32,000 bases of DNA, from the NCBI GenBank assembly GCA_030679915.1, contig JAUXRY010000013.1, positions 26,631 to 58,630 on the forward strand. Direction: 5' to 3'. Position 1 is the first letter of the stretch; every line of letters begins with the position of its first letter. Origin of the DNA: Thiobacillus sp. GTDB taxonomy: Bacteria; Pseudomonadota; Gammaproteobacteria; Burkholderiales; Thiobacillaceae. The position numbers were made by a program, and so were the translations under genes. Below the pieces are notes generated by a model. That model made no database searches. It was not told where the DNA came from and worked only from the letters and a program-made list of their open reading frames with translations. Shown here in pieces: positions 10,212-28,530 of this stretch.

Positions 10212-10916
10212 TTAATAATCGGTTTCGATTTTTTGTCCGTTCTTGTCGATGTACCAGCCTTTTCTGACAGCCTTGCCGTTGAAAATTTTGGCCTCCTGAA
10301 AGTCGCCACCGGGCATGTCATGCACGGCCGACACGGAGTATCCGGGCCTGTATCCTGGCCGCCGCTCGATATCCCAGCCGAAGTAAACCCCATTGGGGTG
10401 AAGCCGGAACTTGATGCGCAACATCCCTGGGTCTTTGTGCAGGGATTCCAGCACCGCGTCGGGGATGCGCTCAGCTATCGGGAGGGTGAAGTCGCCGATG
10501 ATGGGTCCGTCCCAATCGATCCCGCCATTTTTCCCCCAGATCGCTTTAGGCTTTTCCCGCCATATCACCCGTACCCAAAGGGGCACACGGGCACTGCCGA
10601 AATCACCGATTGATCGCTTACGAAGGGCGACGCTACCTGAACTGAAAATCGAATAGCCATTATCGCTGTAGATCTTCACACCCTCCATCTCTGCGCCCGC
10701 TACCGCATCCACCACCAACTGGATGCCGATACCGTGGAAGCGCAGTAGCATGGCTTGCTCCTTGGGGCTCAGGGAGTCGTGATACGTCTTTTCGCGTTCC
10801 TCGCCTGCCTTGCGGGCGGCGCGCACTTCGGCTGGGACGCACGCCGTGAGCAAGGGCAAGCCTGCGAGCAGGGCCAACAGTTTGCGTTTCATGGGCTGGT
10901 GTCGGGTGTTTTGCAT
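10212..10916 (-). CDS. Lipoprotein, candidate immunity protein for the Rhs C-terminal lipase
   Basis: Lipobox LLTAC in MQNTRHQPMKRKLLALLAGLPLLTAC/VP. The start is 1 nt after the Rhs stop codon. Its position matches the canonical toxin-immunity order. The immunity role is inference. Confidence 0.72.
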   Translation of the reverse strand: MQNTRHQPMKRKLLALLAGLPLLTACVPAEVRAARKAGEEREKTYHDSLSPKEQAMLLRFHGIGIQLVVDAVAGAEMEGVKIYSDNGYSIFSSGSVALRKRSIGDFGSARVPLWVRVIWREKPKAIWGKNGGIDWDGPIIGDFTLPIAERIPDAVLESLHKDPGMLRIKFRLHPNGVYFGWDIERRPGYRPGYSVSAVHDMPGGDFQEAKIFNGKAVRKGWYIDKNGQKIETDY

Positions 10917-10917
10917 C

Positions 10918-13900
10918 TTACTGTACCGTCAGGTTGATGTTATAGCCATTGGCATTGAGCCATTTCAGATAGCCCTGCATATCAATCGTCCCCGTCTGAT
11001 TAGTCGTGTAGCCAAACGAGTTCTTGGGCAGGTCCGAACGCTCGGTATAGGTGATGAACTGCTCGGTATCGGCAAAGGTCATGCCGGTACCGGTCATTTT
11101 GCGCTGCGTGGTCTTGGCGGTGATTTTGCCCTTGTCGTCGCGATAGCGCACTTCCCGATCCTCCGCGCCCGAGCCCGAAATTGACGTGGTCGGGATGTCG
11201 TAGTCGTTATTCCACGCGCTGTCGTTGACGATGGGCGAGCCCGCTTTGGGGGAACCAAAGCGGATGGCATCGCTTTTATCATGGATGACGGGGTTGGCAA
11301 TGATGGTATTGGGTGGCGACTTCATCGTTACTCCGGCAGCCTCGGCCTGATCGATCATCCACACTAGGGCGACTTGCGCCAACTGGTTTTCGTTAGGGCC
11401 AAATCCGCCGCCAATGTCGGCGTGGGCGCCGATGAAGCCACGCTCAATATGGGTCTGCCCAAAGGGCACGGTTCCGCCCATAATGGACTCCAGCGGAAAC
11501 CCGCCCCAGGAATGGGTATCCCAAGGCTTGGCACGCCCGAGCGGCAGTGTATGGTCTCGGAACTCGTTCAGGGCGACAGCCTGCGCCACATACTGAAAGC
11601 CGGGCACGATATTGAAGTTGTAACTGGTACCAGACCAATTGTCACTTAGCACGGTGTCCCACAGACCCATGAAGCGGAAGTTTATTTTTTGGCAGTATTG
11701 TTTCCCGTCACGGACGTAGCGGTAGGCGCCGTTGATGGTGTTTGCGTTGATGCGGTTGGCAAATTCGCGCGCCTGCGCCGCACCGCGGCTAAAACCAACG
11801 ATGTCAATGTCCATGGCTATCCCATCATCAAAAGCATCCGCTTCGTCTTTGAAATACTCCACCATGCGCTCGATGCGTTCCGGTCCGCTCCAGTTGACGC
11901 CGGTATCCAGCAGTGGCGCGTTGATGTCGCTGTACGCAGAGCCATCGGGTTCTTTGTGCACGACACCAACACCAGTGATGTAGCGCTTGTTTCCATCGTT
12001 ATACAAATCATAGAAATTCCACACATTCGACAGAGAACTGTCGTTCTTGGCCAACCAAGCCAGGTCCTTCGTATTCTCCGTTCCATCAAACGCAAACAAT
12101 ATCAACCCCCACGGATCGATATAACTCAGCGGGTTGTTGTTGACGTACGCGTAGGTATTGGGGCTGCCCAATACTTCAGCCAGCCTACCCAGCGGATCTG
12201 GACTTAGGTAGCGGCCTGCTTGCGGGTCGTAATAGCGGATGTCGTTGTAATACAGCCCACTCTCGGCATCTTCCCACTGGCCGGGCAAGCGCAGGGCCAG
12301 GGTGTAGATGGATTTATTACTTGGAGATGCACTGGTTTTAATCAGCCGGCCATAGGGTGCATAGTCGGTCTGCCATAAGGTTTGCCCTTTGCGGTCGGTG
12401 GCGGCAATGGGCGCACCCAGATGGTTGACGTGGACAAAGGCAATACTGTCTTCATTGCCAGTAAGGCTGGTCCACAGTGCTTGGGCAGTTTGGGTCAGCT
12501 CTGCGAAGAAATCATCGGCAGGTGCGTGTAGTGCTTTGGGTTGTTTAGTATCCAAAGTGGCAATGAGCTGATCAGCCAGCCAAAGATATTGCCGGATGAT
12601 ATGACCGTTGGCGTCGAGGTCGGCAATGCGCTGGCGTTGAGCGTTATAAAGGGCATAGGTTGATTCACTGCCCACCTGTTTGCTGACGCGAAGACCGTGA
12701 TGGTCATAGCGATAGTGGGCAATGTCTTTGTTTGCCTGCCGAATGGTGATGAGTTGGCCCTGGGCATTCCAGACGTATTCGCGACCCAGCTCAGGCGGGG
12801 TCAACATGGCATTGCTGGCGGAATCGTAGCTGGCTTTGCGGGTGTGGCCCATCTCGGTGACGGGAACATTTTCTTGTGCGAGATCACGGTTGCCTTTGCG
12901 GTCGTAGCGATAACGCCAAGCACTGGGCGCACTTGCCGCATTGGTCACTTTGACTGTCGCTGACATGCCAGAGGATTGCGCAGCGACCAGCTGCGATTGC
13001 CGATCGTAGGCATAGGCTTGGCTGTGCTGCACGCCCTGTCCTTGCTGTTCTTGCAGCAGCACATTGCCAGCGCCATCGTAAATCAATCGTGCGTCGAATA
13101 AGGCCAGCGGATTAGCTGGGAGGCCCAGTGCGCCGGGGAGTTTTCTAGGGGCATCGGCCGGTGTTTGTGCATGCGCTACAGGTAGAAGCTTACTCAACAA
13201 GCTTTCAAGAATGGGTTGCCTGACAGCCTCCCGAGAAGCGGCGGCGATACGTGCAGAATTAACTGCCATGCCTTTAGGGCGGGTGTACACCACGCGTGCC
13301 AATATGCCCTGCTTGCTGCGTTGCCATTGGCCCTGAATGCCGTTGCCGTAGGTCACGCTACGCAGGCCAATCAGGTCGCGTTCCAGATCTTTAACGAGGG
13401 TGGTTTTGCCCCAGCCGAATAATGTCCATGGGCTGCTTTGCTGGCTCACGGCTACAACCTGGCCCTGGCCGTTGCGCTCGTAATTGATTTGGGTGCCGTC
13501 GGGTAGGCTTTGGCTTTGCAGGCTGCCATCGGCGGTGTAGCGGTAACAGGTTACGTGGGTAGCTACAGCGCCGTTATTCAACCTGAGGGTGTCGGTTTTG
13601 ATGGCTGGCTGGCCACGCTCGTTGTAGGTGATGCGTTCGGACTGGTTGGGATGAACGACTTCAGCCAGCCGACCCTGCTTATCGCGCCAGGTTGTGGTTT
13701 GTGGCTCGCCTGTTTTTGGAATAATACTGAGGCGTATGCGCTGGCCGGTCAGGTCGTAGGCGTAGATTTGTATGTCGCCTTGGTCATTGCGCTGCTGAAT
13801 GAGTTGGTCAGCTGCGTTGTATTGCTTGATGGTGCTGCCATGGCTGGGACTTATAACGCTGACAGTGCGGCCAAAATCATCCTTCAGTGTTTGGAAAGCT

Positions 13901-16143
13901 GACTGACTACGCGGCCGCTGGGCATTCGAGCTTTTACCGTAAACAATATTGCGCACACTGCCGGTGTTGTCTGCCACCTGGACGAGGCGATTGAGTACGT
14001 CATATCGATACTGCTCGGTTTGCTCAAAGCTGCGGGTTTGTACGGTGCTGCTGAGCAGATTGCCTTCGGTGTCGTAGCGGGCGCGTTTGAGTATGCCCAG
14101 CGCTTCGGCCTGCCATAACAGGCGGCCGGCCACGTCGTAGGCTAGTCGGGTTTGCGGGCGGTAAGGTTCTACTGCTCCACGTTCAGATGTGTCAGGCGCG
14201 TTAATCTGGCCACCCATTCCTGTTTCGATCATGTGGCCCAGCGCGTCGTAACGATAACGCTGCACCGTTGGTTGGATGCCGGCCTGTTCCCAATTCTGCC
14301 CACTGCTGGATGTTTGAATGAGTTGGCTTCCCGCATCGTAGGTGAAAGTGGTTTTGAAATTGTCGGCGTTGCTGACCACTGCAATGCGACCGACCGCATC
14401 ATATTTAACCGTGCTCGTTTGACTGCCCGGTGGTGTCATCACCACTACTGCATTACCCCGCCCATCCCACTCAATCCGCGTGACATCCGAATCCACCGGA
14501 CTGTTCTTCGGCCCGTTCTTCAACGGCCCATCGATCTGGCTCAGCAGGCTGCGGCCATTGATCGTTTGGTAGGTGTAAGTGGTGGTGCGGCTGATCGGGG
14601 TAGCGGTGGTCTGCCCCTTGTCATCCAGCGGACTGAAGCCGGTTTCGGTGACCTGTGTAGGTTGGCCCAGTGCGTTGGTGCTGATGCGAACCTGATGTTC
14701 ACGGCCGGGAATAACGCTGGGGCGGGCGATGAGACTGGGCTGGTTGGTATCGCCAGCGTATTCGTAGCGCACCTGCAGTTGGGCGGGCTGGGGGTTGCCG
14801 TTTATATAGGCAACGGTGTCGATGCGGAGGGGCCGGCCCGGGTTGTCGCGTTCGGTTTGGGTGGTGAGGCGCGGCTGGCCGCTGGGGCTGAGTTGGGTGT
14901 GTTCGGTTAAGCGGCCGAGTCTGTCGTAGCCGTATTTGACGTTGGACTCGCCGCAGCTGGCGCAGCCGGGGCCGCGCACGTCGAGCAGGCGGTGTTCGTT
15001 GCCGACGATGGCGTGGCTGTAGGTGGTTTGTTGGCCAAGGCTGTTGGTGAGGGTGGTCTTGCCGGGGGAGAAGGTGAGGTTGACCTGTTCGAGGCCGCGT
15101 CCTGAGTTTGCCGAAGGGCCGGTGCCGGGAACAGGCTTGCCGTCTGTGCCGAGTTGCCGGGGCAGGCCTTTGACGCTGAGGATGCCGCGACCCTGGTTGT
15201 CGTAAGCCCAGGTGGAGATGCGTTGAGGCTTGCCCTGCCCTGCCACGCTCAGCCCGGTTAGCAGGGTGGCGTGCGCGGCATCTTCGTAGTGGTAGTGGCG
15301 GCTGGTTGTATTGGGGAAGGTGACGGCGACGAGGTTGGCCAGGAGGTCGCGCGGGTTGCCGGTGTAGGCTTGGGGAGCAGCGCTGCCGTAGGCATAGCTG
15401 AAGCGGCCGACGGGGCTTTCGATATGGGTGACGCCGTTGAAGCGGCTGGGGTCGCGTTTGCCGGGGTAGCCGAGGACGAGGCTGCGGCCCTGGGGGTCGG
15501 TGACTTTGACGAGGACGCCGGTAAGGTCGCGGGTGAGGCTGGCAAATTCGCCGGTGGGGGCGCGGATTTCAGTGAGTTTGCCTTGTGTGTTGAAGATGAG
15601 GATGCGGCCGTTATTCCAGGTCCAGCGGTATTCGTCTCCGCGTTGGGTTTTATGGATGGTAACGCTGCCGTTTGCAGGGTTGTTGGTGGCGCACAGGTTG
15701 GGGTTGTTGCGGTTGCGGATGAAGATGATGCGGGTGCCGTCGGCCTGCATGATCTGCAAGGTGTTGCCGATGGGGTTGAGATCGGTTTCGTAAGAAAGGC
15801 GCCAGCCGCGGCCGAGCACGCCGTTGGACGACCGGGGATCGGCGTGCACGCTGTTGTAGTGACGAACGATTTCCAGGCCGAGCACACCGGGCAAGGCAGG
15901 CAAGTCGACTTCACGCTGATACTTGTTGCCGGTGATGAGGTTGATGGGGTTGCCGGCACCCTGGTTGGTGTCTGAGGTATTGCCCTGGCTGGCGGGACCT
16001 TCTCCTCCGCAAGGGGAACCCGAGTCGCCCGGTCCGCACTGGGTGGGAGTGACGCCTGGGGGGAGTTCGGCTTGTGCCGGCAGAGCGAATAGCAGGCTGC
16101 CGATCAGTAACAGCAGGAGGGTAAAGGCGCGCAGGGGGGTCAT
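10918..16143 (-). CDS. Rhs/YD-repeat toxin with an N-terminal Sec signal peptide and a C-terminal DUF2235 (Tle1-like) phospholipase domain
   Basis: 1741-aa ORF. Signal peptide MTPLRAFTLLLLLIGSLLFALPAQA/E. Rhs entry motif GNPINLITGNKYQREVDLP and many YD-type repeats (YxYDxxGxL-like). Core end motifs RYYDPQAGRYLSPDP and NNPLSYIDPWGL. The C-terminus has FDGTEN, GFSRG and FMGLWDTV. Confidence 0.93.
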   Translation of the reverse strand: MTPLRAFTLLLLLIGSLLFALPAQAELPPGVTPTQCGPGDSGSPCGGEGPASQGNTSDTNQGAGNPINLITGNKYQREVDLPALPGVLGLEIVRHYNSVHADPRSSNGVLGRGWRLSYETDLNPIGNTLQIMQADGTRIIFIRNRNNPNLCATNNPANGSVTIHKTQRGDEYRWTWNNGRILIFNTQGKLTEIRAPTGEFASLTRDLTGVLVKVTDPQGRSLVLGYPGKRDPSRFNGVTHIESPVGRFSYAYGSAAPQAYTGNPRDLLANLVAVTFPNTTSRHYHYEDAAHATLLTGLSVAGQGKPQRISTWAYDNQGRGILSVKGLPRQLGTDGKPVPGTGPSANSGRGLEQVNLTFSPGKTTLTNSLGQQTTYSHAIVGNEHRLLDVRGPGCASCGESNVKYGYDRLGRLTEHTQLSPSGQPRLTTQTERDNPGRPLRIDTVAYINGNPQPAQLQVRYEYAGDTNQPSLIARPSVIPGREHQVRISTNALGQPTQVTETGFSPLDDKGQTTATPISRTTTYTYQTINGRSLLSQIDGPLKNGPKNSPVDSDVTRIEWDGRGNAVVVMTPPGSQTSTVKYDAVGRIAVVSNADNFKTTFTYDAGSQLIQTSSSGQNWEQAGIQPTVQRYRYDALGHMIETGMGGQINAPDTSERGAVEPYRPQTRLAYDVAGRLLWQAEALGILKRARYDTEGNLLSSTVQTRSFEQTEQYRYDVLNRLVQVADNTGSVRNIVYGKSSNAQRPRSQSAFQTLKDDFGRTVSVISPSHGSTIKQYNAADQLIQQRNDQGDIQIYAYDLTGQRIRLSIIPKTGEPQTTTWRDKQGRLAEVVHPNQSERITYNERGQPAIKTDTLRLNNGAVATHVTCYRYTADGSLQSQSLPDGTQINYERNGQGQVVAVSQQSSPWTLFGWGKTTLVKDLERDLIGLRSVTYGNGIQGQWQRSKQGILARVVYTRPKGMAVNSARIAAASREAVRQPILESLLSKLLPVAHAQTPADAPRKLPGALGLPANPLALFDARLIYDGAGNVLLQEQQGQGVQHSQAYAYDRQSQLVAAQSSGMSATVKVTNAASAPSAWRYRYDRKGNRDLAQENVPVTEMGHTRKASYDSASNAMLTPPELGREYVWNAQGQLITIRQANKDIAHYRYDHHGLRVSKQVGSESTYALYNAQRQRIADLDANGHIIRQYLWLADQLIATLDTKQPKALHAPADDFFAELTQTAQALWTSLTGNEDSIAFVHVNHLGAPIAATDRKGQTLWQTDYAPYGRLIKTSASPSNKSIYTLALRLPGQWEDAESGLYYNDIRYYDPQAGRYLSPDPLGRLAEVLGSPNTYAYVNNNPLSYIDPWGLILFAFDGTENTKDLAWLAKNDSSLSNVWNFYDLYNDGNKRYITGVGVVHKEPDGSAYSDINAPLLDTGVNWSGPERIERMVEYFKDEADAFDDGIAMDIDIVGFSRGAAQAREFANRINANTINGAYRYVRDGKQYCQKINFRFMGLWDTVLSDNWSGTSYNFNIVPGFQYVAQAVALNEFRDHTLPLGRAKPWDTHSWGGFPLESIMGGTVPFGQTHIERGFIGAHADIGGGFGPNENQLAQVALVWMIDQAEAAGVTMKSPPNTIIANPVIHDKSDAIRFGSPKAGSPIVNDSAWNNDYDIPTTSISGSGAEDREVRYRDDKGKITAKTTQRKMTGTGMTFADTEQFITYTERSDLPKNSFGYTTNQTGTIDMQGYLKWLNANGYNINLTVQ
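10921..12102 (-). other. Rhs C-terminal toxin module (394 aa after DPWGL): DUF2235/Tle1-like alpha/beta-hydrolase lipase plus a ~130-aa unassigned tail
   Basis: The DPWGL boundary is encoded at 12103-12117. The GxSxG nucleophile elbow GFSRG is at 11782-11796 (ggttttagccgcggt on the minus strand). FAFDGTEN and GLWDTV motifs are typical of DUF2235. Confidence 0.8.
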
Positions 16144-17186
16144 CGTTTGATCGAATCAAGAATCGAAGGAGGATTGTTTGAAGGGATGCTCGACATCTGC
16201 GGAACGTCATCCGGGTCGATCTCACCATTGGCCAACAGACAGCAGTAGTTCTTGCCGCAGCCGGGGTCGCAACTCACGTCGCCCACCTGGCAGCCTGGAG
16301 GGCGGCAACCATTGGGGTCGGTGCTGGCATCGCATTGCGGGGTAGGTGTGCATGCCGGGTTGCTGACCGGGCACTTTGGCAATTCGCCATTTCCAGGCCC
16401 GGGGTCTTGGCCCGGACCTGGGTCTTTGGGCACCCCTTCATTGCCGGGACCGGGGCTGCTGGCGTTAGCGTTTTCATAGGCCGCGCTTTGCATGCGCATG
16501 ACGGTGTGGGTGACGACGGGGATGCGCCCGGCTGCAACCAGCCCCTGACGAAAAGAATCGGTGTCGCCGCCGTTCAAGAATCCGAGCGCCCAGGTCATGA
16601 AACGGCCGGCCAACGGAATCTGCTTGCGATCGGGAATACCGTAAGTAATACGGATTTTGAGGAGGTTGGCGTCGAGCAGGGTCTGGCCGCTTTTATTGAC
16701 CTTGGGGTCGTTGTTGCAGCCGGGCACATCCACCGGGCATTTAATAAAGGCCAAGTTGCTGTTGGGAATGACGCGCGATGAGATGCCGAGTTTCGCCTTG
16801 AGACCAGAACTGGCGTAATCATCAAAGCTCTCTTTGGTGGGAGAAAGAATTTCGACGCGAACGAAAGCGGCGTCGGCAGCAGCCCTGGCATAGGATGTAG
16901 CGAGCTGGGCGGTGGTGGTGCCACCGCCGTAATAGCCGGTCATGGCGCGTGTGAAGGCGGTGCGGATGGCGGTGGGGTCGGCGTTGGAGACACTACCCGC
17001 TCGAGCAGCTTCATAGGTGGCGTAGTTGAGCTGGCTCTTGGCGTGGTATAGCAGGCCATACTGAATGAGGTTCATCAGCACAAACAGCAAGGTGGGCGCA
17101 ACGATGACGAACTCGACCAGAGTGGCGCCGGCCTGGAATACCGAAGGGCGCTGCGGATGTATGGAAACAGGATTGAAGGCGCGCAT
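16140..17186 (-). CDS. TadE-like pseudopilin with a Gly/Pro linker and a Cys-rich C-terminal module
   Basis: N-terminus ...FQAG/ATLVEFVIVAPTLLFVLM (G/xxxxEF prepilin-like motif plus TadE-type hydrophobic helix). C-terminus has a SSPGPGNEGVPKDPGPGQDPGPGNGELP linker, then 9 Cys within aa 272-316. Its stop overlaps the Rhs start (ATGA at 16140-16143). Confidence 0.8.
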   Translation of the reverse strand: MRAFNPVSIHPQRPSVFQAGATLVEFVIVAPTLLFVLMNLIQYGLLYHAKSQLNYATYEAARAGSVSNADPTAIRTAFTRAMTGYYGGGTTTAQLATSYARAAADAAFVRVEILSPTKESFDDYASSGLKAKLGISSRVIPNSNLAFIKCPVDVPGCNNDPKVNKSGQTLLDANLLKIRITYGIPDRKQIPLAGRFMTWALGFLNGGDTDSFRQGLVAAGRIPVVTHTVMRMQSAAYENANASSPGPGNEGVPKDPGPGQDPGPGNGELPKCPVSNPACTPTPQCDASTDPNGCRPPGCQVGDVSCDPGCGKNYCCLLANGEIDPDDVPQMSSIPSNNPPSILDSIKR

Positions 17187-17200
17187 GGAAAAGGGAAGTT

Positions 17201-17926
17201 TCAGGGTTTAACGATGAGCGCCTGGTCGACCCAGCCTTCGGCAGCAGCGCTTTTCACTTTGAGGTAGCGGCCCTGGGCTTCACCCAGATAAATCACTTCT
17301 TCCTTTTTTTCGAGTTGGCCCAATACATTGGATTCCAACCGGGGCTCGGCCAGTAACTTGACGCGGGCAATACGGACAGACAAAAGATCGCCGGCGCTGT
17401 ACGCGACATTGGATGCGCTGGCCACTTGATTACCCGGTTTCGCAACCGATTGAACCCGGCCAGATGCGGTGGATGCTCCACTCGCTTGTTCAGTTTGAAA
17501 TTGCGCGTAGGTTTTATCAAAGCTGGCGGCGGAAAAGCCGGTGAGCTTGTGGCTGCCCATGATAGTGAGCGGCACTCCCCGCCCGCCTAATGCGCGCCAT
17601 TCAGATTCGGCCTGTGCATTGCTGGACACGTCTTTTTCCAGAAAGGGGATGCCACGGCTTTGCAGGTGCACACGTGCCTGCTTGCAGTACCCGCAGTTAG
17701 GTGTGCCATAGAGGACGATTTCACCTGGACGGGCATCACGGATTTCAGCGTTGGCCGGGCGAGTGCCCGCGCTAGGGGTTTCGATGCTGCGAAACATGCC
17801 GGATACACCCCGGTAGATTTGCTGATTGACCTGACCTTGCATGGTGCTTTCGAACACCGAAACCGGGTCCCATGCCAGGACCGGCGTTGACATCAGATAC
17901 GCCAGAAAAATGCTCAAACGCTTCAT
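17201..17926 (-). CDS. Secreted glutaredoxin/thioredoxin-fold protein with a C-terminal SH3b-like domain
   Basis: Signal peptide MKRLSIFLAYLMSTPVLA/WD. Redox motif IVLYGTPNCGYCKQAR. The C-terminus (GDLLSVRIARVKLLAEPRLESNVLGQLEKKEEVIYLGEAQGRYLKVK...GWV) resembles bacterial SH3. ATGA overlap with the DUF192 gene. Confidence 0.72.
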   Translation of the reverse strand: MKRLSIFLAYLMSTPVLAWDPVSVFESTMQGQVNQQIYRGVSGMFRSIETPSAGTRPANAEIRDARPGEIVLYGTPNCGYCKQARVHLQSRGIPFLEKDVSSNAQAESEWRALGGRGVPLTIMGSHKLTGFSAASFDKTYAQFQTEQASGASTASGRVQSVAKPGNQVASASNVAYSAGDLLSVRIARVKLLAEPRLESNVLGQLEKKEEVIYLGEAQGRYLKVKSAAAEGWVDQALIVKP

Positions 17927-18291
17927 GCTCCACTCTCCTGATTAAAGCCTTGCAGGCTGCGGGCGAGCGATATGCCGACAGCCAGTTCAAGCCGCTGGGC
18001 TTCGCCCGCTGCCAGCTCAAGCGTCTGCCAGGCGCCGGAGCACGTGGCGGCTCGCCATGGCTTGAGGTGAGGAACAATTTTCTGGATGCGCCCTGCCCCA
18101 TCCAGAAAAACCACGTCGATGGAAAACCGCATGAAGGCGGTGTGGACGGCGGCGCAGGGAACAATAAGCAGGCCCTGGCCAGGCTGCAACGGCGGCGAGA
18201 ACAACAGACCGGCCAGCCGGCTGAAGAAATGGTCGGCGCGGCGCACGGCCAGTTTGGAAGGAGAAGTCAGGGTTTGCATGTCATGCCGCAT
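17923..18291 (-). CDS. DUF192-family protein
   Basis: Size (~120 aa) and motifs (FFSRLAGLLF...GLLIVPCAAVHTAFMRFSIDVVFLD..G.I) fit the DUF192/COG1430 pattern. It starts immediately after the tadC stop. Confidence 0.65.
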   Translation of the reverse strand: MRHDMQTLTSPSKLAVRRADHFFSRLAGLLFSPPLQPGQGLLIVPCAAVHTAFMRFSIDVVFLDGAGRIQKIVPHLKPWRAATCSGAWQTLELAAGEAQRLELAVGISLARSLQGFNQESGA

Positions 18292-19188
18292 CTAAAAGGT
18301 GGAAGCCATGAATTTCATGGCGATGGGGAACATGAGAATGGCGAAGACGCAGGGAAAAATGAAGAAGATCAGCGGGAACAGCAGCTTGACCGGAGCTTCC
18401 ATGGCGAGCTTTTCGGCGCGGGCGAAACGTTCGATGCGGCGCTGGTCAGCCTGGGCGCGCAGGATTGGGCCGAGGCTCATGCCGGTGGCTTCGGCCTGGA
18501 TCAGGGTGGAAACGAAGCTGGAGACGGCGGCCATATCCATACGGGCTGCCAGCTCTCGCAGGGCTTCGGATCGGGGCTTGCCGGCTCGAATATCGCGCAA
18601 CAGGCGAGCGAACTCATCTTTCAGGGCCCCGGATGGACCTTTATCGACGGCCTGCTGGATGGCACCGGCAAGGTTGAGGCCGGATTCGACGCACAGCGTG
18701 ATGAGGTCGAGCATGAACGGCAGTGATTTCAAAGCCTGACGTCGCCGGACGTCAATGCGGTCTTTGAGCCAGATGGCAGGATAGATAAAGCCGAGCAGAA
18801 AGGCCGCCATGGAAGGGCCCGCTGCTGGAATCCTGAAAGTTGTGGCCAACCAACCACCGATTAGGCCGAAAATGCACCCCCACAGTAAACGTCCCGCCAA
18901 ATACTGGGCAGGGCTCAGCGAAAAATCCAGGCCGGCAATACGCAACTTGGTCAATATCGAGGTTTGGCGAGCGGCAGACAGCCAAGGGTCAATGTAGTGT
19001 GCCAACCACTGCAGTGGCCACCACATCAGACGAAAACCAACTGGCGGTGCATCAAGCCAGGCACGATCCTGTTTCGGCACATCCGCTGCCAGACGCGATA
19101 TCACCCAGGCGACGAGCGCGAACGACAGCCCCGCCGCCAGCGCAAAAACGGCGATGATCCATTGGGGATTCAGGTCTGGCGGATTCAT
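18292..19188 (-). CDS. tadC: Tad pilus inner-membrane platform protein TadC (T2SS-F domain)
   Basis: T2SS-F-like domain (LPFMLDLITLCVESGLNLAGAIQQ...) with flanking TM segments. Preferred start is ATG 19188 with GAGGA 7 nt upstream, rather than the track's TTG at 19209. Confidence 0.85.
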   Translation of the reverse strand: MNPPDLNPQWIIAVFALAAGLSFALVAWVISRLAADVPKQDRAWLDAPPVGFRLMWWPLQWLAHYIDPWLSAARQTSILTKLRIAGLDFSLSPAQYLAGRLLWGCIFGLIGGWLATTFRIPAAGPSMAAFLLGFIYPAIWLKDRIDVRRRQALKSLPFMLDLITLCVESGLNLAGAIQQAVDKGPSGALKDEFARLLRDIRAGKPRSEALRELAARMDMAAVSSFVSTLIQAEATGMSLGPILRAQADQRRIERFARAEKLAMEAPVKLLFPLIFFIFPCVFAILMFPIAMKFMASTF

Positions 19189-19198
19189 GCCGAGTTCC

Positions 19199-20047
19199 TC
19201 ATACGTCAATGGCCACGATGCGCCGGATGATCCAGACGCCGAAGAATTCCATGGTCACCACCGCGGCGATTACGCCCCACCCGATCTGGGTAGTCCACAA
19301 CAGTGACATCGCGGCGGGTTCCATTTTGGTGAGCACCCAAAGCAGGAAAAGGGGTAACAAACCAACCACCCAGGCTTGCAGCTTGCCCTGGCTGGTCAGT
19401 GCGCGAATCTTGAGTTCCATGGCGTGTTGGCTGCGCAGGGTGGTGGCGGTGCGTTCCAGCGTTTCGGCCAGACCACCGCCCGTTTCAGACGCAATCCGCA
19501 TGGCCGAGACCATGAGATTGACCGATTGCATGGGGACGCGATGCGTGAGATTTTCCAGCGCGTCGTTAAGGCTGACGCCGAGACGCTGCTCGTGCTGCAT
19601 CAGCTGAAACTCTTGAGACAGCGGCGGCGGTAGTTCAGCGCCCACTTGGCGCACGGCAGAAACGAGCGACAAACCGGCTTTGGCTGCGCCTGAAATCATC
19701 AGCAAGGCATCGGGCAGTTGTTGTTCGATGCGATCGATGCGACGACGCCGAAGCCAACGAAAAATGAAACGTGGCGCCAGCGCCAGCAGAACAGCAACAA
19801 TCAACGCCAGGACCAGGCTATGTGTCAGCAGCCAGGTGCCCGTGGAGGCTATCAGCATCATCGCCAGATTAAGTGCATACAGCCGCGACGGGTCCGCAAA
19901 CAGAAACAGTTCGCGCATGCTGAAATGGGTGTCGCGCGTAAAGCGCGTGCGATAAGCAACCAGCCAGCGCCCCCCCAGATCAGTCAGTGCCCAGACCAGC
20001 AGGGCAACTGCTGCGGCAACGGCAAAACTGAAGCCAATGACAATCAT
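19199..20047 (-). CDS. tadB: Tad pilus inner-membrane platform protein TadB (T2SS-F domain)
   Basis: T2SS-F-like domain (QLPDALLMISGAAKAGLSLVSAVRQV...) with N- and C-terminal TM segments. ATGA overlap with cpaF. Confidence 0.85.
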   Translation of the reverse strand: MIVIGFSFAVAAAVALLVWALTDLGGRWLVAYRTRFTRDTHFSMRELFLFADPSRLYALNLAMMLIASTGTWLLTHSLVLALIVAVLLALAPRFIFRWLRRRRIDRIEQQLPDALLMISGAAKAGLSLVSAVRQVGAELPPPLSQEFQLMQHEQRLGVSLNDALENLTHRVPMQSVNLMVSAMRIASETGGGLAETLERTATTLRSQHAMELKIRALTSQGKLQAWVVGLLPLFLLWVLTKMEPAAMSLLWTTQIGWGVIAAVVTMEFFGVWIIRRIVAIDV

Positions 20048-21705
20048 GCTTCACCCTGCCGATTGAAAATACTCAGATCAAGTGGAATGCCGGCTTCGCG
20101 CAGCCCCTCGTAAAATGAAGGTACGGCATTGCATCCGCTGAAATGTCCTGTGATACGGTCATTTGAATCACGCCCCTTTTGTTCGTATTTAAAGAGTTCC
20201 TGCAACTGAATTTTGTTGGATTCCATGCCGGTGATCTCAACGATGCCGGTAACGACACGCCGGCCATCGGCCAGGCGCGCCTGCTGGATGATGATGTCGA
20301 CGGCAGAAACGACCTGGTCGCGAATCGCTGCCAGTGGCAAATCCATGCCGGCCATCAATATCAGAGTTTCAAGCCGGGCCAAGGCATCTCGCGGGGTATT
20401 GGCATGCAGGGTGGTAAGCGAGCCTTCGTGACCGGTGTTCATGGCTTGCAGCATGTCGAGTGCTTCGCCGCCGCGGCATTCACCGACCACAATGCGATCG
20501 GGGCGCATCCGCAAGGCATTTTTGACGAGGTCACGAATCGCGACCTGGCCGCGACCTTCGGCATTGGCAGGACGTCCTTCAAGACTGATCAGGTGTGAAT
20601 GCGCCAATCGCAATTCAGCGGCATCTTCGATCGTGATGACACGTTCACCATCAGGAATGAAGTTGGACAAGACGTTGAGCAAGGTGGTTTTTCCGGAACC
20701 GGTACCGCCGGAAATGATGATGTTTTTGCGGTGCAAGACGGCCATACGCATGAATTCGGCCATGTCCGCGTTGATTGCGCCAAAGCCTATGAGATCGTCG
20801 ACAGTCAGCGCACGCCGTGAAAATTTCCGGATGGTTAGCGTGGGCCCTTTGATCGCCAACGGCGGGATGATGGCATTGACCCGGGAGCCATCTTTCAAGC
20901 GTGCATCCACCATGGGCGAGGATTCGTCGATGCGCCGACCGATGGGTGCCACGATGCGCTCGATGACGCCAAGCACAGCTCGGTCGCTGCTAAAGATTGA
21001 GGCATGGCGTTCCAGACGCCCTCCGCGTTCGAGATAAATCTCATCGAAGCGGTTGACCATTATCTCGGTAATGCTGTCATCAGCCAGCAGTTCTTCCAGC
21101 GGCCCCAGTCCCACTGCCTCGTTAAGCACATCACGCACCAGGTTTTCGCGGTCGATGGCATCCGGCAAAGCAGATTCCCGTCCGATAATTTCGCGAATCA
21201 GTGCTTCGGTTTCGCGTCGGAGCTCGTCATCTTCCATGCGCATCAAATCGCGCCGGCGCAGATCGATAGCGTCGAGCAGTTGCTCGTGAATGCGACGTCG
21301 CCAAAAGTGGTGTGGCGTGGCAGCATGGGATACAGGCGCTGCCTGAACACCGTGGACCTGGGCAGGTAACTGATCGTCCGCCTGACCAAGCGCCTGATCA
21401 ATCGGCGTGACCTCCAACTTATCCATCACCGTGATGGTGTGGTTCCCCAGCATGATTTCATCCGAATGAACGATGGGGCCGTGGTGCTCAATCCGCACAC
21501 CATTGACCCACGTTCCGGAGAACTGACCGAGATCCTGGATGAACAAACCACTCTTGGTGCGGAAAATACGCGCGTGTTCACGCCCAATTCGCCATCCTGA
21601 CAAGCGGATATGGCACTCCCGGCTCTTGCCGATCATGGCCGTGGTGTCCACGATCAGCTCGGCGCGCTGCTTTTTATCGGGATCGGTAATTTGAACTTGA
21701 AACAT
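20044..21705 (-). CDS. cpaF: CpaF/TadA-family secretion ATPase with an N-terminal FHA-like domain
   Basis: Walker A GGTGSGKTTLLN and the conserved CpaF core (ITIEDAAEL, VGECRGGEALDMLQAMNTGHEGSLTTLHAN). The N-terminal ~95 aa resembles FHA (IGKSRECHIRL...REHARI...FIQDLGQFSGTWVNG...GNHTITV). Confidence 0.9.
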   Translation of the reverse strand: MFQVQITDPDKKQRAELIVDTTAMIGKSRECHIRLSGWRIGREHARIFRTKSGLFIQDLGQFSGTWVNGVRIEHHGPIVHSDEIMLGNHTITVMDKLEVTPIDQALGQADDQLPAQVHGVQAAPVSHAATPHHFWRRRIHEQLLDAIDLRRRDLMRMEDDELRRETEALIREIIGRESALPDAIDRENLVRDVLNEAVGLGPLEELLADDSITEIMVNRFDEIYLERGGRLERHASIFSSDRAVLGVIERIVAPIGRRIDESSPMVDARLKDGSRVNAIIPPLAIKGPTLTIRKFSRRALTVDDLIGFGAINADMAEFMRMAVLHRKNIIISGGTGSGKTTLLNVLSNFIPDGERVITIEDAAELRLAHSHLISLEGRPANAEGRGQVAIRDLVKNALRMRPDRIVVGECRGGEALDMLQAMNTGHEGSLTTLHANTPRDALARLETLILMAGMDLPLAAIRDQVVSAVDIIIQQARLADGRRVVTGIVEITGMESNKIQLQELFKYEQKGRDSNDRITGHFSGCNAVPSFYEGLREAGIPLDLSIFNRQGEA

Positions 21706-21719: not shown

Positions 21720-23324
21720 TCAGTAAGAGGAATCATCCCAGCGCCAACTGGAGGATGGTTCCTTCCTGTCTGCTGATCCGTTGGATGTACCCAGCCCAGG
21801 CACACTTGCCAGATCGGGCTTGCCTGTACGCGGTGTGGACGCAAGTCGAGCGGCAGCCTTGGCCATACTTTCTTCCAATGCGAGCGAGTTTTTGTCCACC
21901 GCAACCGGGGTGACAAAAACCACAAGCTCGGTTTCGTTATTCTGAAAGCGCTTGGAACGGAACAAGGCGCCAAGCACAGGGATGTTGCCCAGGAAAGGGA
22001 CTTTGTCGACCGAAGTGCTGACGTCACGCTTGAGCAAACCACTCAGAACAATGGTGCCGCCTTCCATGACGTTGAACTCGGTTTCGGTCTTGCGGGTGCG
22101 CAAGGCCGGCCCCCCGATTGTGCTGATTGAGGTGTCAATATCGCTGACTTCACTCATGATTTTGGCGCGGATTACGCCGTTGTGATCAACGCGGGGTTCG
22201 ATATCGAGCCGGATCCCATAGGGCTTGAATACGATGGTGGTGCCGTTAATGTTGCTAACGCTATAGGGAAACTCGCCCCCTGCCAGAAAAGTGGCTTTCG
22301 TACCACTACGCGCAGACAACGTGGGCTGGGCCAGTATTGTCGCGGTGCCGTTCTGTTCCATTAAATTGAGCTGGGCATTCAAGCCCATGTTCAGGACGGA
22401 CAAAACATTCAGGCTGGACGTGAGGGGATAAGGACCACTTCCTCCAGGAGGGGTGATCGGCGCGGGTGTTTGTTGACCGGAGATGAGGTTGATCTGATAT
22501 GGCCCGTCGTTGCCACGACGGAACGGGCTCCACACGCCGCCAAATGCGACACCGCCGGTTGCCCCCCACTTAAGTCCGATTTCTTTCAGTGCTGTGGTTG
22601 GAAACTCAACGACCTTGACGTCCATCACGATCATTTTTTCCCAACCGATTGGGTTGGTGAAATTGACGATCTGCGGATAGCGTTTGGCCAGCGTTTCGAC
22701 TTTCGCGAGATCATGGTCACTCAGGTTGTCACCTTCTACGATGACCTTGTCGCCTATCACCGCGGCCTTGGCGTTGGGGATGGTAGCCACGAAAGTAGCA
22801 ACTTCTTGCGTGATCCGTGCCGTTTCGCTCGGCATGATGGTGACCTTGAGGCGACGATTACGACCATCCCGTGTCCAGATATGCAAGGACGAAACACCCA
22901 CTTCGTTAGCGATCAGCAGTATTTCCTTGTCGTCCATCACCGCCGCAGACAGCGCCTTGCCATTACCCACAGCCAAACGTCCGGCGTTGGGCTCGGAAAT
23001 GACACGCGTCTCGCCGCTGAACATTTCGATTTCGCCTGCGAATCCGGCTTTGAGCGAAACCGGGCCTGCCACTGCGGTTTTACGGTTACCTCGTGATTTA
23101 CGTGCCGCAGCTTTTGGGGCCGCTGGTGCCCCGGCTGTTGCTTCATTCGATATCGATTGACTCGAGATAGCCGGCTTAACACTTGATACCGGATCATTTG
23201 CAGCAAGCTGACGAACCTCGGAAGGCGATGGCGAGGCAGGTGCCGCGACCTCTGCGGCATGAACCGACAGGCTCAATGTAATCAGCGCCAGAATCTGGCC
23301 AATGCGTTGAGTAATGCGTTTCAA
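21720..23324 (-). CDS. cpaC: Tad secretin CpaC/RcpA
   Basis: C-terminal secretin domain (VPFLGNIPVLGALFRSKRFQNNETELVVFVTPVAV). Start chosen at TTG 23324 (LKRITQRIGQILALITLSLSVHA, signal peptide) with GGGAG 6 nt upstream. The track's ATG at 23417 adds 31 unlikely residues. Confidence 0.88.
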   Translation of the reverse strand: MKRITQRIGQILALITLSLSVHAAEVAAPASPSPSEVRQLAANDPVSSVKPAISSQSISNEATAGAPAAPKAAARKSRGNRKTAVAGPVSLKAGFAGEIEMFSGETRVISEPNAGRLAVGNGKALSAAVMDDKEILLIANEVGVSSLHIWTRDGRNRRLKVTIMPSETARITQEVATFVATIPNAKAAVIGDKVIVEGDNLSDHDLAKVETLAKRYPQIVNFTNPIGWEKMIVMDVKVVEFPTTALKEIGLKWGATGGVAFGGVWSPFRRGNDGPYQINLISGQQTPAPITPPGGSGPYPLTSSLNVLSVLNMGLNAQLNLMEQNGTATILAQPTLSARSGTKATFLAGGEFPYSVSNINGTTIVFKPYGIRLDIEPRVDHNGVIRAKIMSEVSDIDTSISTIGGPALRTRKTETEFNVMEGGTIVLSGLLKRDVSTSVDKVPFLGNIPVLGALFRSKRFQNNETELVVFVTPVAVDKNSLALEESMAKAAARLASTPRTGKPDLASVPGLGTSNGSADRKEPSSSWRWDDSSY

Positions 23325-23434
23325 AATAAACTCCCTGATCTTTCTATTTTTTGTTGAATTCGCTACGCCAGCTGCACAAAAAATATGCACACCATGCGCG
23401 GTGCCACATTCATGCAATGACTGTTAAATGACTG

Positions 23435-24289
23435 CTATCGGTATGCTGGCAATTCGCCCCCCTCCCGACCCACGCGCGCATTCATGCTTTGGCCTTCGGT
23501 AATAGGCCCACCTCCGTAGATCACGGGAACGGAGCTGGCGGCAGAACCCTGGCCGGTCGCGAGTCCCAGCAAGACCAAGGCATCGGTGCGTTCCTTGGAA
23601 ACATGAGCGCCGTCATTCGGCGCCCGCAGTAAAGCGGTGACACGGCCGACTTCACGCGCAGCAATCACGCGCTTGGCATCTTCCGGGCTGGTATCCAATG
23701 TAATGGTGCTAAACGTGCGGCTACGACCTTCCGGATCTTTTTCCTCTTGCGAGGCCTTGGTGCCAGTTGCCAGCACGGTGACGCTCTGTAGCAGCGTAAA
23801 TGTGAAGTTTTTCTTGTCGTTTTTGATCGAGACGATGATATCGATCAGATCGCCCGGCTCCACCATGCCCGACAGGGAACTGATTTCATCCACCGGAACA
23901 GTGACAGCGCGACGGCCCTGAGTCAGGCGCGTGGAAAAAGTGGGGGCACGTTGCCCTTCGAGTTGTGCCCAGATCACCGGCTCGCCGGCATTGGCCGTGT
24001 AAGCAAGGGTGGAGCCTTCCGCGCGGCCAAACTGATCGGGTGTAATCGCACCCGAGTGCGCCCATTCTTTCGGAATGGACCGCACTGCCATGTTCGCGGC
24101 AAGCAGCGCACTGCCCTTGGCGAGGTCAGTTTTGGCTACCACTACTTGAACCATGGCCTTGTTTTTTTCGCGCGCCTCTATCTCCGCCATTTGAGCGCCA
24201 AGGTAGTTCTTTGCACCCCAGGCAGCCAACCCGCCCACACCTAACGCGGAGACAAGAACAATCCAGTTTTTGTTGATTTTGTATGCCAT
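23435..24289 (-). CDS. cpaB: Flp pilus assembly protein CpaB/RcpC
   Basis: N-terminal TM anchor (NWIVLVSALGVGGLAAWGA) followed by SAF/CpaB-like regions (VVVAKTDLAKGSAL, RAVTVPVDEISSLSGMVEPGDLIDII). Its position is directly upstream of the secretin. Confidence 0.85.
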   Translation of the reverse strand: MAYKINKNWIVLVSALGVGGLAAWGAKNYLGAQMAEIEAREKNKAMVQVVVAKTDLAKGSALLAANMAVRSIPKEWAHSGAITPDQFGRAEGSTLAYTANAGEPVIWAQLEGQRAPTFSTRLTQGRRAVTVPVDEISSLSGMVEPGDLIDIIVSIKNDKKNFTFTLLQSVTVLATGTKASQEEKDPEGRSRTFSTITLDTSPEDAKRVIAAREVGRVTALLRAPNDGAHVSKERTDALVLLGLATGQGSAASSVPVIYGGGPITEGQSMNARVGREGGELPAYR

Positions 24290-24301: not shown

Positions 24302-24487
24302 TTACAAGGGAATAGAAAGAAAGCCGCTCAGATTGTCGAAAGCGGAGTGGACTGAATTGAGAAACACATCGATGACGGAGACATCACCCGCAAAGCTGAC
24401 GCCGACCATCATCATGACGACCAGCATGGCAGCCAGATATTCGGTCATCGACTGTCCAGATTGCCGGTTTCTTGACGTTCCGGTCAT
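24302..24487 (-). CDS. Second Flp-family (type IVb) prepilin-like protein, 61 aa
   Basis: MTGTSRNRQSG/QSMTEYLAAMLVVMMMVGVSF: a charged leader, a G/xxxxEY motif and a hydrophobic helix. ATGA overlap with the upstream gene. Confidence 0.7.
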   Translation of the reverse strand: MTGTSRNRQSGQSMTEYLAAMLVVMMMVGVSFAGDVSVIDVFLNSVHSAFDNLSGFLSIPL

Positions 24488-25146
24488 GGCATTAGAACCG
24501 TCGTTAGAACGACATTACTGGTCCCATCCTTGCGAACCACGACCAGTTGGGCCTCGCGATTTTCGCCCCCAAACATCAGGACTCGGCCGGCTTCCTGTTT
24601 TTTCGCTTCGGCGGACTGCAGTTTGTAACCTCGCGCCTGCAATGTTTTACTTATGAACTCCACGTTGCTGTCTACGGAATGGTTATTCATAAGCACCAGT
24701 TGCCGTGAGATCTTTCCTGCGTCGGTTGACTCCATGTCAGACAGAACCTGGGTGTCGGCTGGAACCGGAAAACCCAAGGAACGCTGAGAAGCGTCTTTAG
24801 CACCGCGCGCATCACTCACCGAAATCAGCGTCTCAGTGAGGGACGGGCCCAATACCTTGATGCGAATGGTTACGAAATAATCGCCCTGCCCCTGCGCAAG
24901 CAAAATACCGTCCGGCAATTTCTCCTCGGCATGTTTAGGACCGAGTGCTGAACGATAAAACTTGATGATGTTTGACGGCTTGTCGGTGCTCAAGACACGC
25001 TGCATACGCATCGGGATCCCATTCAAACGCACTTGCTCGCCTATCTGCTCGACCCTCGCATTTCGTGGTGACGGCACTTCGGGCCAGCCCGCCCAGCCCG
25101 GCAACGTCCATAGCATTGCCGTCAAGAAAAGCCAAACCGATTTCAC
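24484..25146 (-). CDS. Secreted protein of unknown function (220 aa) inside the Tad cluster
   Basis: GTG start with GGAGG 7 nt upstream, overlapping the upstream stop (GTGA). Signal peptide (M)KSVWLFLTAMLWTLPGWA. I recognise no family. Confidence 0.6.
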   Translation of the reverse strand: MKSVWLFLTAMLWTLPGWAGWPEVPSPRNARVEQIGEQVRLNGIPMRMQRVLSTDKPSNIIKFYRSALGPKHAEEKLPDGILLAQGQGDYFVTIRIKVLGPSLTETLISVSDARGAKDASQRSLGFPVPADTQVLSDMESTDAGKISRQLVLMNNHSVDSNVEFISKTLQARGYKLQSAEAKKQEAGRVLMFGGENREAQLVVVRKDGTSNVVLTTVLMP

Positions 25147-28266: not shown

Positions 28267-28530
28267 TTACTCGTCCTTATTATTTGTGTAGGTATCGAGC
28301 GTCTCTTTTGTGGCTGCTTTAGCCGCGCCAGCTGTCGCAGCCGTTTGCGCCGCTGCTTTGGCCGTGGTGCCGTCGTTGCCAGCCAATTCCTGGGCGATCG
28401 CAGCGGTCTGGTTACGTACCGTAGAACCAAAATACTGATACACGGCAATCGCGGCAATCGCAATCATCGCAACAATAATGATGTATTCAGTCATGCCCTG
28501 ACCCCGTTGTGAACGACGCATTGATTTCAT
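28267..28530 (-). CDS. flp: Flp-family type IVb prepilin (major pilin candidate), 87 aa
   Basis: MKSMRRSQRG/QGMTEYIIIVAMIAIAAIAVYQYFG: Flp G/xxxxEY motif and hydrophobic helix. ATG 28530 is preceded by GGGAG. The longer track ORF (to 28608) adds an implausible leader. Unusually long Ala/Thr/Lys-rich C-terminal tail. Confidence 0.85.
   Translation of the reverse strand: MKSMRRSQRGQGMTEYIIIVAMIAIAAIAVYQYFGSTVRNQTAAIAQELAGNDGTTAKAAAQTAATAGAAKAATKETLDTYTNNKDE

Follow-up and report, generated by a model that had tools for sequence, protein, structure and literature searches.

A Sec-signal Rhs toxin of Thiobacillus sp. as the probable cargo of a Tad-like pilus machine encoded in the same operon

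The 32,000-nucleotide stretch of Thiobacillus sp. DNA analysed here (the window; positions 26,631 to 58,630 of contig JAUXRY010000013.1, assembly GCA_030679915.1) contains an operon of some 18 kb, closely packed on the minus strand, whose penultimate gene encodes an Rhs toxin with a predicted signal peptide and whose last gene is an immunity candidate. The open reading frame (ORF) of the toxin (10918-16143, minus strand) is unbroken, and its translation gives a protein of 1741 amino acids (aa). The upstream genes encode a Tad-like machine of the type IVc filament class, including Flp, TadE/F/G pseudopilins, RcpC, CpaC, CpaF, TadB and TadC, and genes overlap or are separated by short gaps all along, from the large minor pilin TadG453 to the immunity gene (Table 1). 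Comparison of related loci and proteins suggests that the Rhs protein is probably cargo of this machine, reached via a TadE-like minor pilin (TadE348) whose gene directly precedes that of the toxin, the stop codon of the former and the start codon of the latter sharing the letters ATGA in a 4-nucleotide overlap.

The linkage of Rhs and Tad genes was followed in both directions. In the forward direction, an alignment of the Rhs N-terminus was searched against contigs representing one genome per species of the GTDB, which gave 269 relatives and 75 retained loci, compared by tblastn with the operon proteins of the window; the counts cover Rhs copies with enough upstream DNA. A TadE348 homologue lies directly upstream, accompanied by a CpaF/TadB/TadC/CpaC/RcpC core, in 27 copies; 6 copies have TadE alone, and 4 occupy later places in Rhs arrays that follow a TadE-Tad cluster. 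The linked copies belong to at least 15 genera (Thiobacillus, Sulfuricella, Collimonas, Paraherbaspirillum, Massilia, Telluria, Noviherbaspirillum, Pseudoduganella, Propionivibrio, Rubrivivax, Rhodoferax, Aquabacterium, Verminephrobacter, Methylibium and the gammaproteobacterium Solimonas), and in Methylibium (L071) the TadE-Rhs-immunity set lies inside the cluster, between RcpC and CpaC. In the reverse direction, an alignment of TadE only was searched against metagenome contigs, giving 311 relatives and 80 retained loci, 53 of which have at least 1.2 kb of downstream sequence. The Rhs N-terminus of this family follows TadE within about 1.1 kb in 41 of these 53; other cargo is a phospholipase A2 (PLA2)-like gene set (three loci), a pesticin-like toxin (one) or a PT-HINT toxin (one). 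Where the PLA2-like set is present, an Rhs homologue occurs a few kb further on in L102, and none is seen in the available sequence of L093 and L127. The Rhs and immunity genes may also lie upstream of CpaF (L159), a position at which L156, L158 and L162 show only a homologue of the immunity candidate (Imm234), at the contig edge.

The pilin and the toxin are also found as a single polypeptide. An exhaustive phmmer search with TadE348 against 1.84 billion cluster representatives gave 1189 matches at E<=1e-3 and 545 at E<=1e-10, and long proteins that open with a TadE domain occur among the best 150 matches. Eight of those tested consist of TadE followed by RHS repeats, with DUF6531 detectable in seven and an RHS core plus a recognisable toxin domain in several, including a Tle1-like C-terminus in P0321. 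Six others combine TadE with PT-HINT, four of them ending in a nuclease domain (barnase-like, Tox-REase-5 or Endonuclease_NS_2), and no C-terminal domain was recognised in P0350 and P0363. At the junction, the pilin core (...RLPIxATATVRMQS) gives way to a Gly/Asp/Pro-rich linker of at least about 100 aa with one or two cysteines, which leads into SLSVGNPIHVVTGNKFQ, and none of the TadE-toxin fusions has an internal signal peptide. The toxin thus carries a separate signal peptide if, and only if, it is not joined to the pilin; in the fused form the pilin part brings its own membrane-targeting helix. The genomic context confirms that the fusions occupy the slot of the split toxin: L166 reads Flp, RcpC, secretin, DUF192/TPR, FHA-CpaF, TadB, TadC and a TadE-Rhs protein of 1696 aa, and L164 reads TadC, a 179-aa protein, DUF192, TPR and a TadE-PT-HINT-endonuclease protein, followed by small immunity-like genes.

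Cargo of unrelated kinds can occupy the same position. Directly after TadE, L077 (Rhodoferax ferrireducens) encodes a 559-aa PT-HINT toxin and an immunity-type gene of the PoNi/DUF6630 kind, and L082 a pesticin-domain toxin (E 2.7e-31) and a small gene, followed by a second glutaredoxin-TadE module; in L079 and L081 TadE is followed by a protein of 298 aa that matches PLA2G12 weakly and contains the motif CVDHDVCY. All three kinds (PT-HINT, pesticin-like and PLA2-like) start with a signal peptide and a short Cys loop (ACDPSKASC, ACDPTVSSC, CGVNMSC or CEPPPIC), which follows the pattern CDP[ST]xxSC or a variant of it. Many Rhs homologues likewise carry a CDPTxQSC, CPPNSSC or CGVTMSC loop, placed ahead of a near-universal CGPxxGGxxC loop, and the Rhs protein of the window carries the latter type only: its linker holds exactly two cysteines, C36 and C45, in CGPGDSGSPC. 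In the alignment of Rhs N-termini, whose consensus at this place is CGPxxGGxxC, C36 is invariant, and a Cys pair just before GPASQGN..GNPIN recurs across 121 distinct N-termini, 73 of which match a simple regular expression. A recurrent set of four genes was also observed between TadE and Rhs (L079, 10921-14411; L081, 10920-14418; L093; L127), encoding the PLA2-like secreted protein, two proteins of about 360 aa (exported) and about 260 aa (membrane), and a DsbA-like protein with a Tat signal and a CPAC motif.

These observations bear on a different account, according to which the toxin is a generic Sec-dependent Rhs protein that leaves the cell through the general type II secretion system (T2SS), in outer-membrane vesicles or by lysis, the Tad pilus mediating adhesion or contact and being co-regulated only. 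In favour of such an exit are the classification of signal-peptide RHS toxins as T2SS/Sec-dependent by Zhang et al. 2012, which makes this the default pathway (PMC3482391), the many members of the Rhs family that stand alone, the classically adhesive nature of Tad pili, and the mismatch in size between the Tad conduit and the Rhs cocoon. However, it would leave unexplained the single chains of TadE with Rhs or with PT-HINT and a nuclease, the TadE-Rhs modules found away from the core cluster, the repeated glutaredoxin-TadE-toxin modules, and the presence of a signal peptide plus Cys loop on four unrelated classes of toxin after TadE, and we consider it unlikely.

The N-terminus of the Rhs protein was read by rule and has the n-, h- and c-regions of a signal peptidase I substrate: a single arginine (R5) in the n-region, an uncharged and hydrophobic h-region of 16 residues (A6-L21, with a mean Kyte-Doolittle value of 2.88 for the best 12-mer), and P-A-Q-A followed by E, with small residues at -3 and -1 of the predicted cleavage site. 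By the same reading there is no lipobox cysteine, no twin arginine and no prepilin G/xxxxE motif. The original prediction, drawn from the letters of the window, had described a protein opening with MTPLRAFTLLLLLIGSLLFALPAQA/ELPP, a cleavable signal peptide, and continuing through a short Gly/Pro/Cys linker into the Rhs entry motif, and its description holds: the letters are identical, the n/h/c rules are consistent with cleavage at A-Q-A/E, and the linker TQCGPGDSGSPCGGEGP passes straight into GNPINLITGNKYQ. A strict rule on hydrophobicity and charge is passed by 69 of the 94 homologues with a complete N-terminus, the rest being mostly borderline or mis-called at their starts, and what the homologues keep is the signal-like property, not the sequence. 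It is very unlikely that this N-terminus is instead an uncleaved signal anchor which tethers Rhs to the inner membrane and yields no secreted effector. The h-region is fairly long, and in the fused relatives the pilin helix initially tethers Rhs to the membrane; however, a helix-breaking proline and a canonical A-x-A site follow the hydrophobic stretch, conservation of a property without conservation of sequence is typical of cleaved signals, and the immunity gene and polymorphic C-terminus argue for delivery to other cells.

That the protein is a type VI secretion system (T6SS) effector, with a PAAR, prePAAR or adaptor that is cryptic or encoded elsewhere in the genome, is hardly credible: most characterised Rhs toxins of Gram-negative bacteria are T6SS cargo and the Tle1 toxin family is known from T6SS, but T6SS effectors lack canonical signal sequences according to one source (PMC11582642), the toxin has a Sec signal and no PAAR, VgrG or Eag partner, only 38 residues separate the cleavage site from DUF6531, too few to accommodate a PAAR domain, and no vgrG, hcp or eag gene occurs in the window or in related loci with inspected flanking gene calls. 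The absence of PAAR, prePAAR, MIX and VgrG, noted at the outset by eye, persisted in a Pfam scan of Rhs residues 1-200 at E<=10, which returned only DUF6531 and noise and no DUF1795; a cryptic module was rejected on this lenient scan and on whole-protein Pfam and NCBIfam scans. Likewise, no T6SS component was found among the large window ORFs scanned, in agreement with the statement that the 32 kb hold no T6SS genes. The broader claim that the protein has no recognisable trafficking domain is right for domains of the T6SS kind and too strong overall, because the Cys-loop linker is conserved and common to unrelated cargo toxins, which makes it a candidate targeting element. The original prediction had also tentatively pointed to CpaC, as the sole secretin in the window, for passage across the outer membrane. 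No other secretin occurs among the window ORFs scanned, and this suggestion gains strong support from the linkage in both directions, the variety of cargo and the fusions; transport through CpaC itself we infer.

The remainder of the toxin has the layout of a polymorphic Rhs protein. RHS repeats (PF05593, E 5.8e-35; TIGR01643, E 4.3e-23) form the predicted YD shell, for which sequence matches in the PDB are the Rhs cores 7q97, 8cp6 and 7pq5, the Pfam RHS core lies at aa 1234-1269, and the RHS-associated core (TIGR03696, aa 1261-1347, E 5.7e-23, NCBIfam) ends in PDPLG...IDPWGL, read as a DPxGL autoprotease motif at which self-cleavage is predicted. The C-terminal domain combines a PF09994 match with a GxSxG-type nucleophile motif, GFSRG, consistent with a predicted phospholipase activity, and it matches the PDB entry 6sjl_D ('putative type VI secretion protein', E 1.8e-6). 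In homologous Rhs proteins the C-termini are polymorphic, with different or divergent toxins, and, as is characteristic of polymorphic toxins, a putative immunity gene lies directly downstream. Imm234 has no family match in Pfam or NCBIfam, and its homologues in other loci lie mostly beside the more similar Tle1-type C-termini. Seven loci (L005, L015, L016, L033, L062, L090 and L129) have additional Tle1-like C-terminal fragments and repeated immunity homologues 3' of Rhs, with up to three copies of the latter in L062, an arrangement that resembles the orphan toxin-tip/immunity arrays typical of Rhs and contact-dependent inhibition (CDI) loci.

In the proposed carrier, TadE348, a pilin-type N-terminus (G/ATLVEF) precedes a core of about 230 aa, after which come a Pro/Gly linker and a tail containing nine cysteines; 657 homologues were found, and the protein is 100% identical to a protein annotated from a metagenome-assembled genome of Thiobacillus sp. 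An AlphaFold2 model has a mean predicted local distance difference test (pLDDT) score of 67.6 and is confident only for the pilin-type helix (23-66) and the core, the tail being of low confidence. Median cysteine counts are odd in the TadE tails (9, 5 and 7) and even in the Rhs linkers (mostly 2, 4 or 6), and pilins with a long tail are paired only with two-Cys Rhs linkers (15/15), those with a short tail often with linkers of four to six. These counts, taken from sequence and confounded by phylogeny, are suggestive of complementary modules or an intermolecular disulfide and serve as a lead only. Short tails end in C-x-G-x-x-C-P-x-C in L013, L018, L019, L026, L040, L041, L044, L047, L059 and L062, a motif that contains CPxC, as in redox active sites. 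In ten other loci (L051, L052, L060, L066, L076, L049, L055, L056, L067 and L068) TadE has, in place of a Cys-rich tail, what appears to be an OmpA_C-type end; this peptidoglycan-binding type (GYTD...NRRVEV), recognised by motif reading and seen in Actimicrobium, Aquabacterium, Rhodoferax and Pseudoduganella, is an odd appendage on a pilin supposed to exit the cell.

The delivery that we propose would begin with Sec export of the Rhs protein to the periplasm, where the YD shell would, as it folds, enclose all or part of the toxin and the immunity lipoprotein would shield the envelope of the producer; a lipoprotein is well suited to this role if the toxin passes through the producer's periplasm as well as acting from the periplasmic side. 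Next, the mature N-terminus, looped by a disulfide in its linker, would dock onto TadE348, whose Cys-rich tail may be the docking site, and the exported glutaredoxin-like protein may aid folding or linkage. FHA-CpaF, TadB and TadC would polymerise the Flp pilin beneath a tip complex of minor pilins, by which Rhs would be carried or pushed through RcpC and the CpaC secretin and either released or presented at the tip of the pilus. Contact with a competitor would lead the DPxGL autoprotease to free the toxin, which would attack membrane phospholipids from the periplasmic side. The window has the split form, with a pilin gene and a signal-peptide toxin gene, and other bacteria have the form in which both are one polypeptide. 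Two precedents come from other pili: TcpF is secreted by a type IVb pilus through an N-terminus that hooks onto the minor pilin TcpB (PMC9565799), and the Kil Tad pilus of Myxococcus xanthus, with an FHA-fused ATPase and interchangeable TadE/F/G tips, kills on contact by a toxin that is unknown (PMC8460266, PMC12075869).

Several points weigh against delivery by the Tad-like machine. The gene tadE is the normal last gene of tad operons, so that adjacency alone is weak and non-specific, and the case rests on the TadE-only modules, the duplicated glutaredoxin-TadE-toxin modules and the fusions. About half of the Rhs copies (some 30) stand alone, the 10 kb upstream of them being free of Tad genes; a shared alternative neighbour upstream of them was sought and not found, the neighbours being variable. 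The evidence for Tad delivery is all comparative, and the docking step lacks structural support, given the low-confidence TadE tail and the absence of any match at E<=0.001 in a Foldseek search of the TadE348 model against the PDB. A prepilin peptidase (TadV/CpaA), TadZ/CpaE and a TadD pilotin were not found among the ORFs of the operon and window, and may be encoded elsewhere; the Kil system, too, is without some of them. In Pseudomonas aeruginosa the pore of the RcpC ring measures about 5 nm, and the width of the Tad pilus is about 4.5 nm (PMC12307814), as against a T6SS Rhs cocoon of 86 x 65 A (PMC8765631), which poses a steric problem. Finally, the toxin, at about 43 kDa, is larger than the cargos known to be encapsulated, and passage of a Tle1-type toxin across the target outer membrane is left without explanation. 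The wider reading, in which the loci represent a widespread, contact-dependent pathway, mainly of Betaproteobacteria, with an FHA-CpaF Tad pilus whose TadE-like pilin serves in the trafficking of polymorphic toxins of several kinds (Rhs, PT-HINT nucleases, pesticin-like muramidases and PLA2-like lipases) that are fused to it or docked via a disulfide-looped tag, has in our view about an even chance of being correct.

Table 1. Features of the Rhs toxin and of the operon that encodes it, in order from the regulator candidate to the immunity gene.
Feature	Coordinates	Strand	Remarks
LuxR-family regulator candidate	28812..29591	-	Pfam GerE E 4e-15; directly upstream of the Flp pilin gene, same strand
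Flp-type major pilin candidate	28267..28530	-	87 aa, ...RGQG/MTEYIIIVAMIAIAA; Flp_Fap E 1.1e-4, below gathering score
TadG-like large minor pilin (TadG453)	26865..28226	-	453 aa; PF13400 Tad E 1.3e-5 at aa 12-57
Exported protein, Cys-rich, no family	25906..26862	-	318 aa; hydrophobic N-terminus; no Pfam/NCBIfam match
Second TadE/TadF-like pseudopilin	25143..25925	-	260 aa; RGQ/STVEFVVL; weak Pfam TadE E 0.04; conserved in related clusters
Signal-peptide protein, no family match	24484..25146	-	220 aa; position conserved in related clusters
Second small Flp-like pilin	24302..24487	-	61 aa; GQS/MTEYLAAM
RcpC/CpaB periplasmic alignment protein	23435..24289	-	Pfam RcpC E 1.1e-25, plus SAF
CpaC/RcpA-type outer-membrane secretin	21720..23417	-	565 aa; Secretin E 1e-41, T2SS-T3SS_pil_N E 6e-12
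CpaF/TadA ATPase with N-terminal FHA	20044..21705	-	T2SSE E 1.3e-60 (aa 197-475), FHA E 5.9e-13 (aa 25-87)
TadB platform protein	19199..20047	-	Pfam T2SSF E 6.8e-20
TadC platform protein	18292..19209	-	Pfam T2SSF E 2.2e-18
DUF192 protein	17923..18291	-	Pfam E 1.7e-16; present in nearly every related locus
Exported glutaredoxin-like protein (CGYC) with C-terminal SH3	17201..17926	-	Glutaredoxin E 1.9e-9, SH3_3 E 6.8e-6; signal-like N-terminus
TadE-like minor pilin TadE348	16140..17186	-	348 aa; Pfam TadE E 2e-13; proposed toxin carrier
Rhs signal peptide	16069..16143	-	aa 1-25, MTPLRAFTLLLLLIGSLLFALPAQA, predicted cleavage AQA/E; rule-based reading
Rhs N-terminal linker	15955..16068	-	aa 26-63, 38 aa, Gly/Pro-rich, Cys pair; candidate targeting/docking element
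DUF6531 (Rhs N-terminal plug region)	15721..15954	-	aa 64-141, Pfam E 1.4e-18
YD-repeat shell and RHS-associated core	12103..15720	-	Pfam, NCBIfam; ends SPDPLG...IDPWGL, aspartyl autoprotease motif
C-terminal toxin, Tle1-like (DUF2235) phospholipase (predicted)	10921..12102	-	about 394 aa, PF09994 E 1.7e-17, GFSRG serine motif
Candidate immunity lipoprotein (Imm234)	10212..10916	-	234 aa, lipobox LLTA/C; next gene after Rhs

Other genes of the operon recur in related clusters. Homologues of TadG453 are conserved at the head of the clusters, those of the 318-aa exported protein occupy the same position, and a gene of 61-62 aa is called at the position of the second Flp in L077, L079, L081 and L082; the FHA-CpaF fusion is present in every related cluster looked up. 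A G/xxxEY processing motif can be read in the candidate major pilin, and the LuxR-family gene (28812-29591) may be the regulator of the operon. In other clusters the glutaredoxin-like protein is replaced by exported thiol-disulfide oxidoreductases that are thioredoxin-like, or DsbA-like with a Tat signal. We know of no role for DUF192 in Tad systems, despite its near-universal presence in clusters of this type. It is fused to TPR repeats in L166 (3839-4714) and called as an N-terminal fusion to TadE in P0193, P0197, P0219, P0222, P0225, P0227 and P0228; some of these fusions may be gene-calling artefacts arising from overlapping ORFs. Only families of the Tad type were matched in the window, with no Gsp-type T2SS component (GspC/L/M, GspG-K), and scans for promoters and terminators at the operon ends gave no more hits than shuffled controls.

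The G+C content of the Tad-Rhs island (window positions 8000-30400) is 0.49-0.60, versus 0.60-0.64 in the left flank, and the island is bounded by the LuxR-family gene and an insertion sequence (IS)-type DDE transposase (DUF772 and DDE_Tnp_1_6, 30429-32000); the lower G+C and the adjoining transposase suggest horizontal acquisition. Just 3' of the immunity gene, in the stretch of lowest G+C, lies a gene for a 492-aa signal-peptide protein (8683-10161, minus strand) with only a weak match to DUF2336 (HEAT-like) and no homologue in related loci except the identical contig L001. Further left, a cyanophycin-synthetase-like ATP-grasp protein of 742 aa (1629-3857, minus strand) has as neighbours an 862-aa fused ABC transporter and a DUF1854 protein (3787-6851, plus strand), and the long plus-strand ORFs that overlap the ATP-grasp gene have no family matches and are probably spurious.

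The N-terminal trafficking module serves to classify polymorphic toxins (type V, type VI and type VII secretion systems, and others), and the signal-peptide Rhs toxins of Gram-negative bacteria fall into a default Sec/T2SS bin with no known outer-membrane route. This locus and its relatives link that bin to a specific machine, with the TadE-like pilin as candidate carrier and the Cys-loop linker as candidate tag. RHS toxins are placed under 'T2SS/Sec-dependent system' in Table 1 of Zhang et al. 2012 (PMC3482391), and a myxobacterial review agrees; since the class has been listed since 2012, the bare observation of an Rhs protein with a Sec signal is not new. The text of the same paper contains no mention of pilin, pilus or TadE, and no account of a polymorphic toxin linked to Tad or fused to TadE, or of a link between pilins and PT-HINT, was found in a mainly non-subscription literature; a bioRxiv paper considered as a possible earlier description of an Rhs-Tad link concerned T6SS only. 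The Tad-operon context of a signal-peptide Rhs toxin thus appears new, and there is a substantial chance that it represents a distinct toxin-delivery pathway. If so, a pilus would play the part that PAAR/VgrG loading plays in T6SS, and the pathway would hint at the type of cargo in Kil-like pili, the lethal cargo and its attachment being at issue both in the Kil system of Myxococcus and in related Bdellovibrio systems. The carriers include cultured type strains (Collimonas antrihumi, Massilia pinisoli, Telluria antibiotica, Aquabacterium soli, Paraherbaspirillum soli and Solimonas aquatica), which makes the hypothesis directly testable.

Among known systems, the Rhs toxins of T6SS (RhsA of Pseudomonas protegens, Rhs1/Tre23 of Photorhabdus and Tse5 of P. 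aeruginosa) share with the present toxin the DUF6531 plug, the YD cocoon, the DPxGL motif and a polymorphic toxin with immunity; the logic of a tip carrier that is fused to the toxin, as in PAAR-Rhs, or encoded apart from it, as in VgrG plus Rhs, applies to both, and orphan carrier-effector islands occur in both. In contrast, they have no signal peptide, are cytoplasmic and are loaded onto a contractile spike, whereas here there is a Sec signal, a TadE-like pilin as putative carrier and no PAAR, prePAAR or transmembrane region. WapA of Bacillus subtilis and the Sec-dependent RHS class resemble the present toxin in combining a signal peptide, RHS repeats and a C-terminal toxin with immunity, but WapA is Gram-positive and wall-anchored, and the class as described in 2012 lists no signature neighbourhood genes, in contrast with the conserved dedicated machine and Cys-loop element found here. 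The T2SS belongs to the same type IV filament superfamily and expels folded, Sec-exported proteins through a secretin by means of a pseudopilus tipped with minor pseudopilins; its components differ from those of the present operon, which are of the Tad type (Flp, TadE/G, RcpC, CpaC, CpaF and TadB/C) and include no GspC/L/M or GspG-K.

Two pilus systems come closer to the proposed mechanism. TcpF of Vibrio cholerae and CofJ of enterotoxigenic Escherichia coli (ETEC) are Sec-exported, encoded in the pilus operon, and bind the tip minor pilin by a flexible mature N-terminus (PMC9565799). They differ in that the pilus is of type IVb and not Tad, and in that the cargo is a small colonisation factor, as opposed to a 190-kDa toxin cage with an immunity gene. 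To our knowledge, no fusion of pilin and cargo exists for the TcpF/CofJ systems. The Kil system of M. xanthus is, like the present one, Tad-derived, with a single, FHA-fused CpaF-type ATPase (KilF) and no TadD, and is antagonistic (PMC8460266, PMC12075869); the distal parts of several of its TadE/F/G-like minor pilins are variable and rich in disulfides. Kil works with a needle-less type III secretion system (T3SS), of which neither the window nor the related loci inspected showed any gene, and its toxins are unknown, whereas here explicit toxin-immunity genes are attached or the toxin is fused to the pilin. The tip genes of Kil are reported to be restricted by sequence to the Myxococcota, in contrast with the TadE348 family, which is essentially betaproteobacterial.

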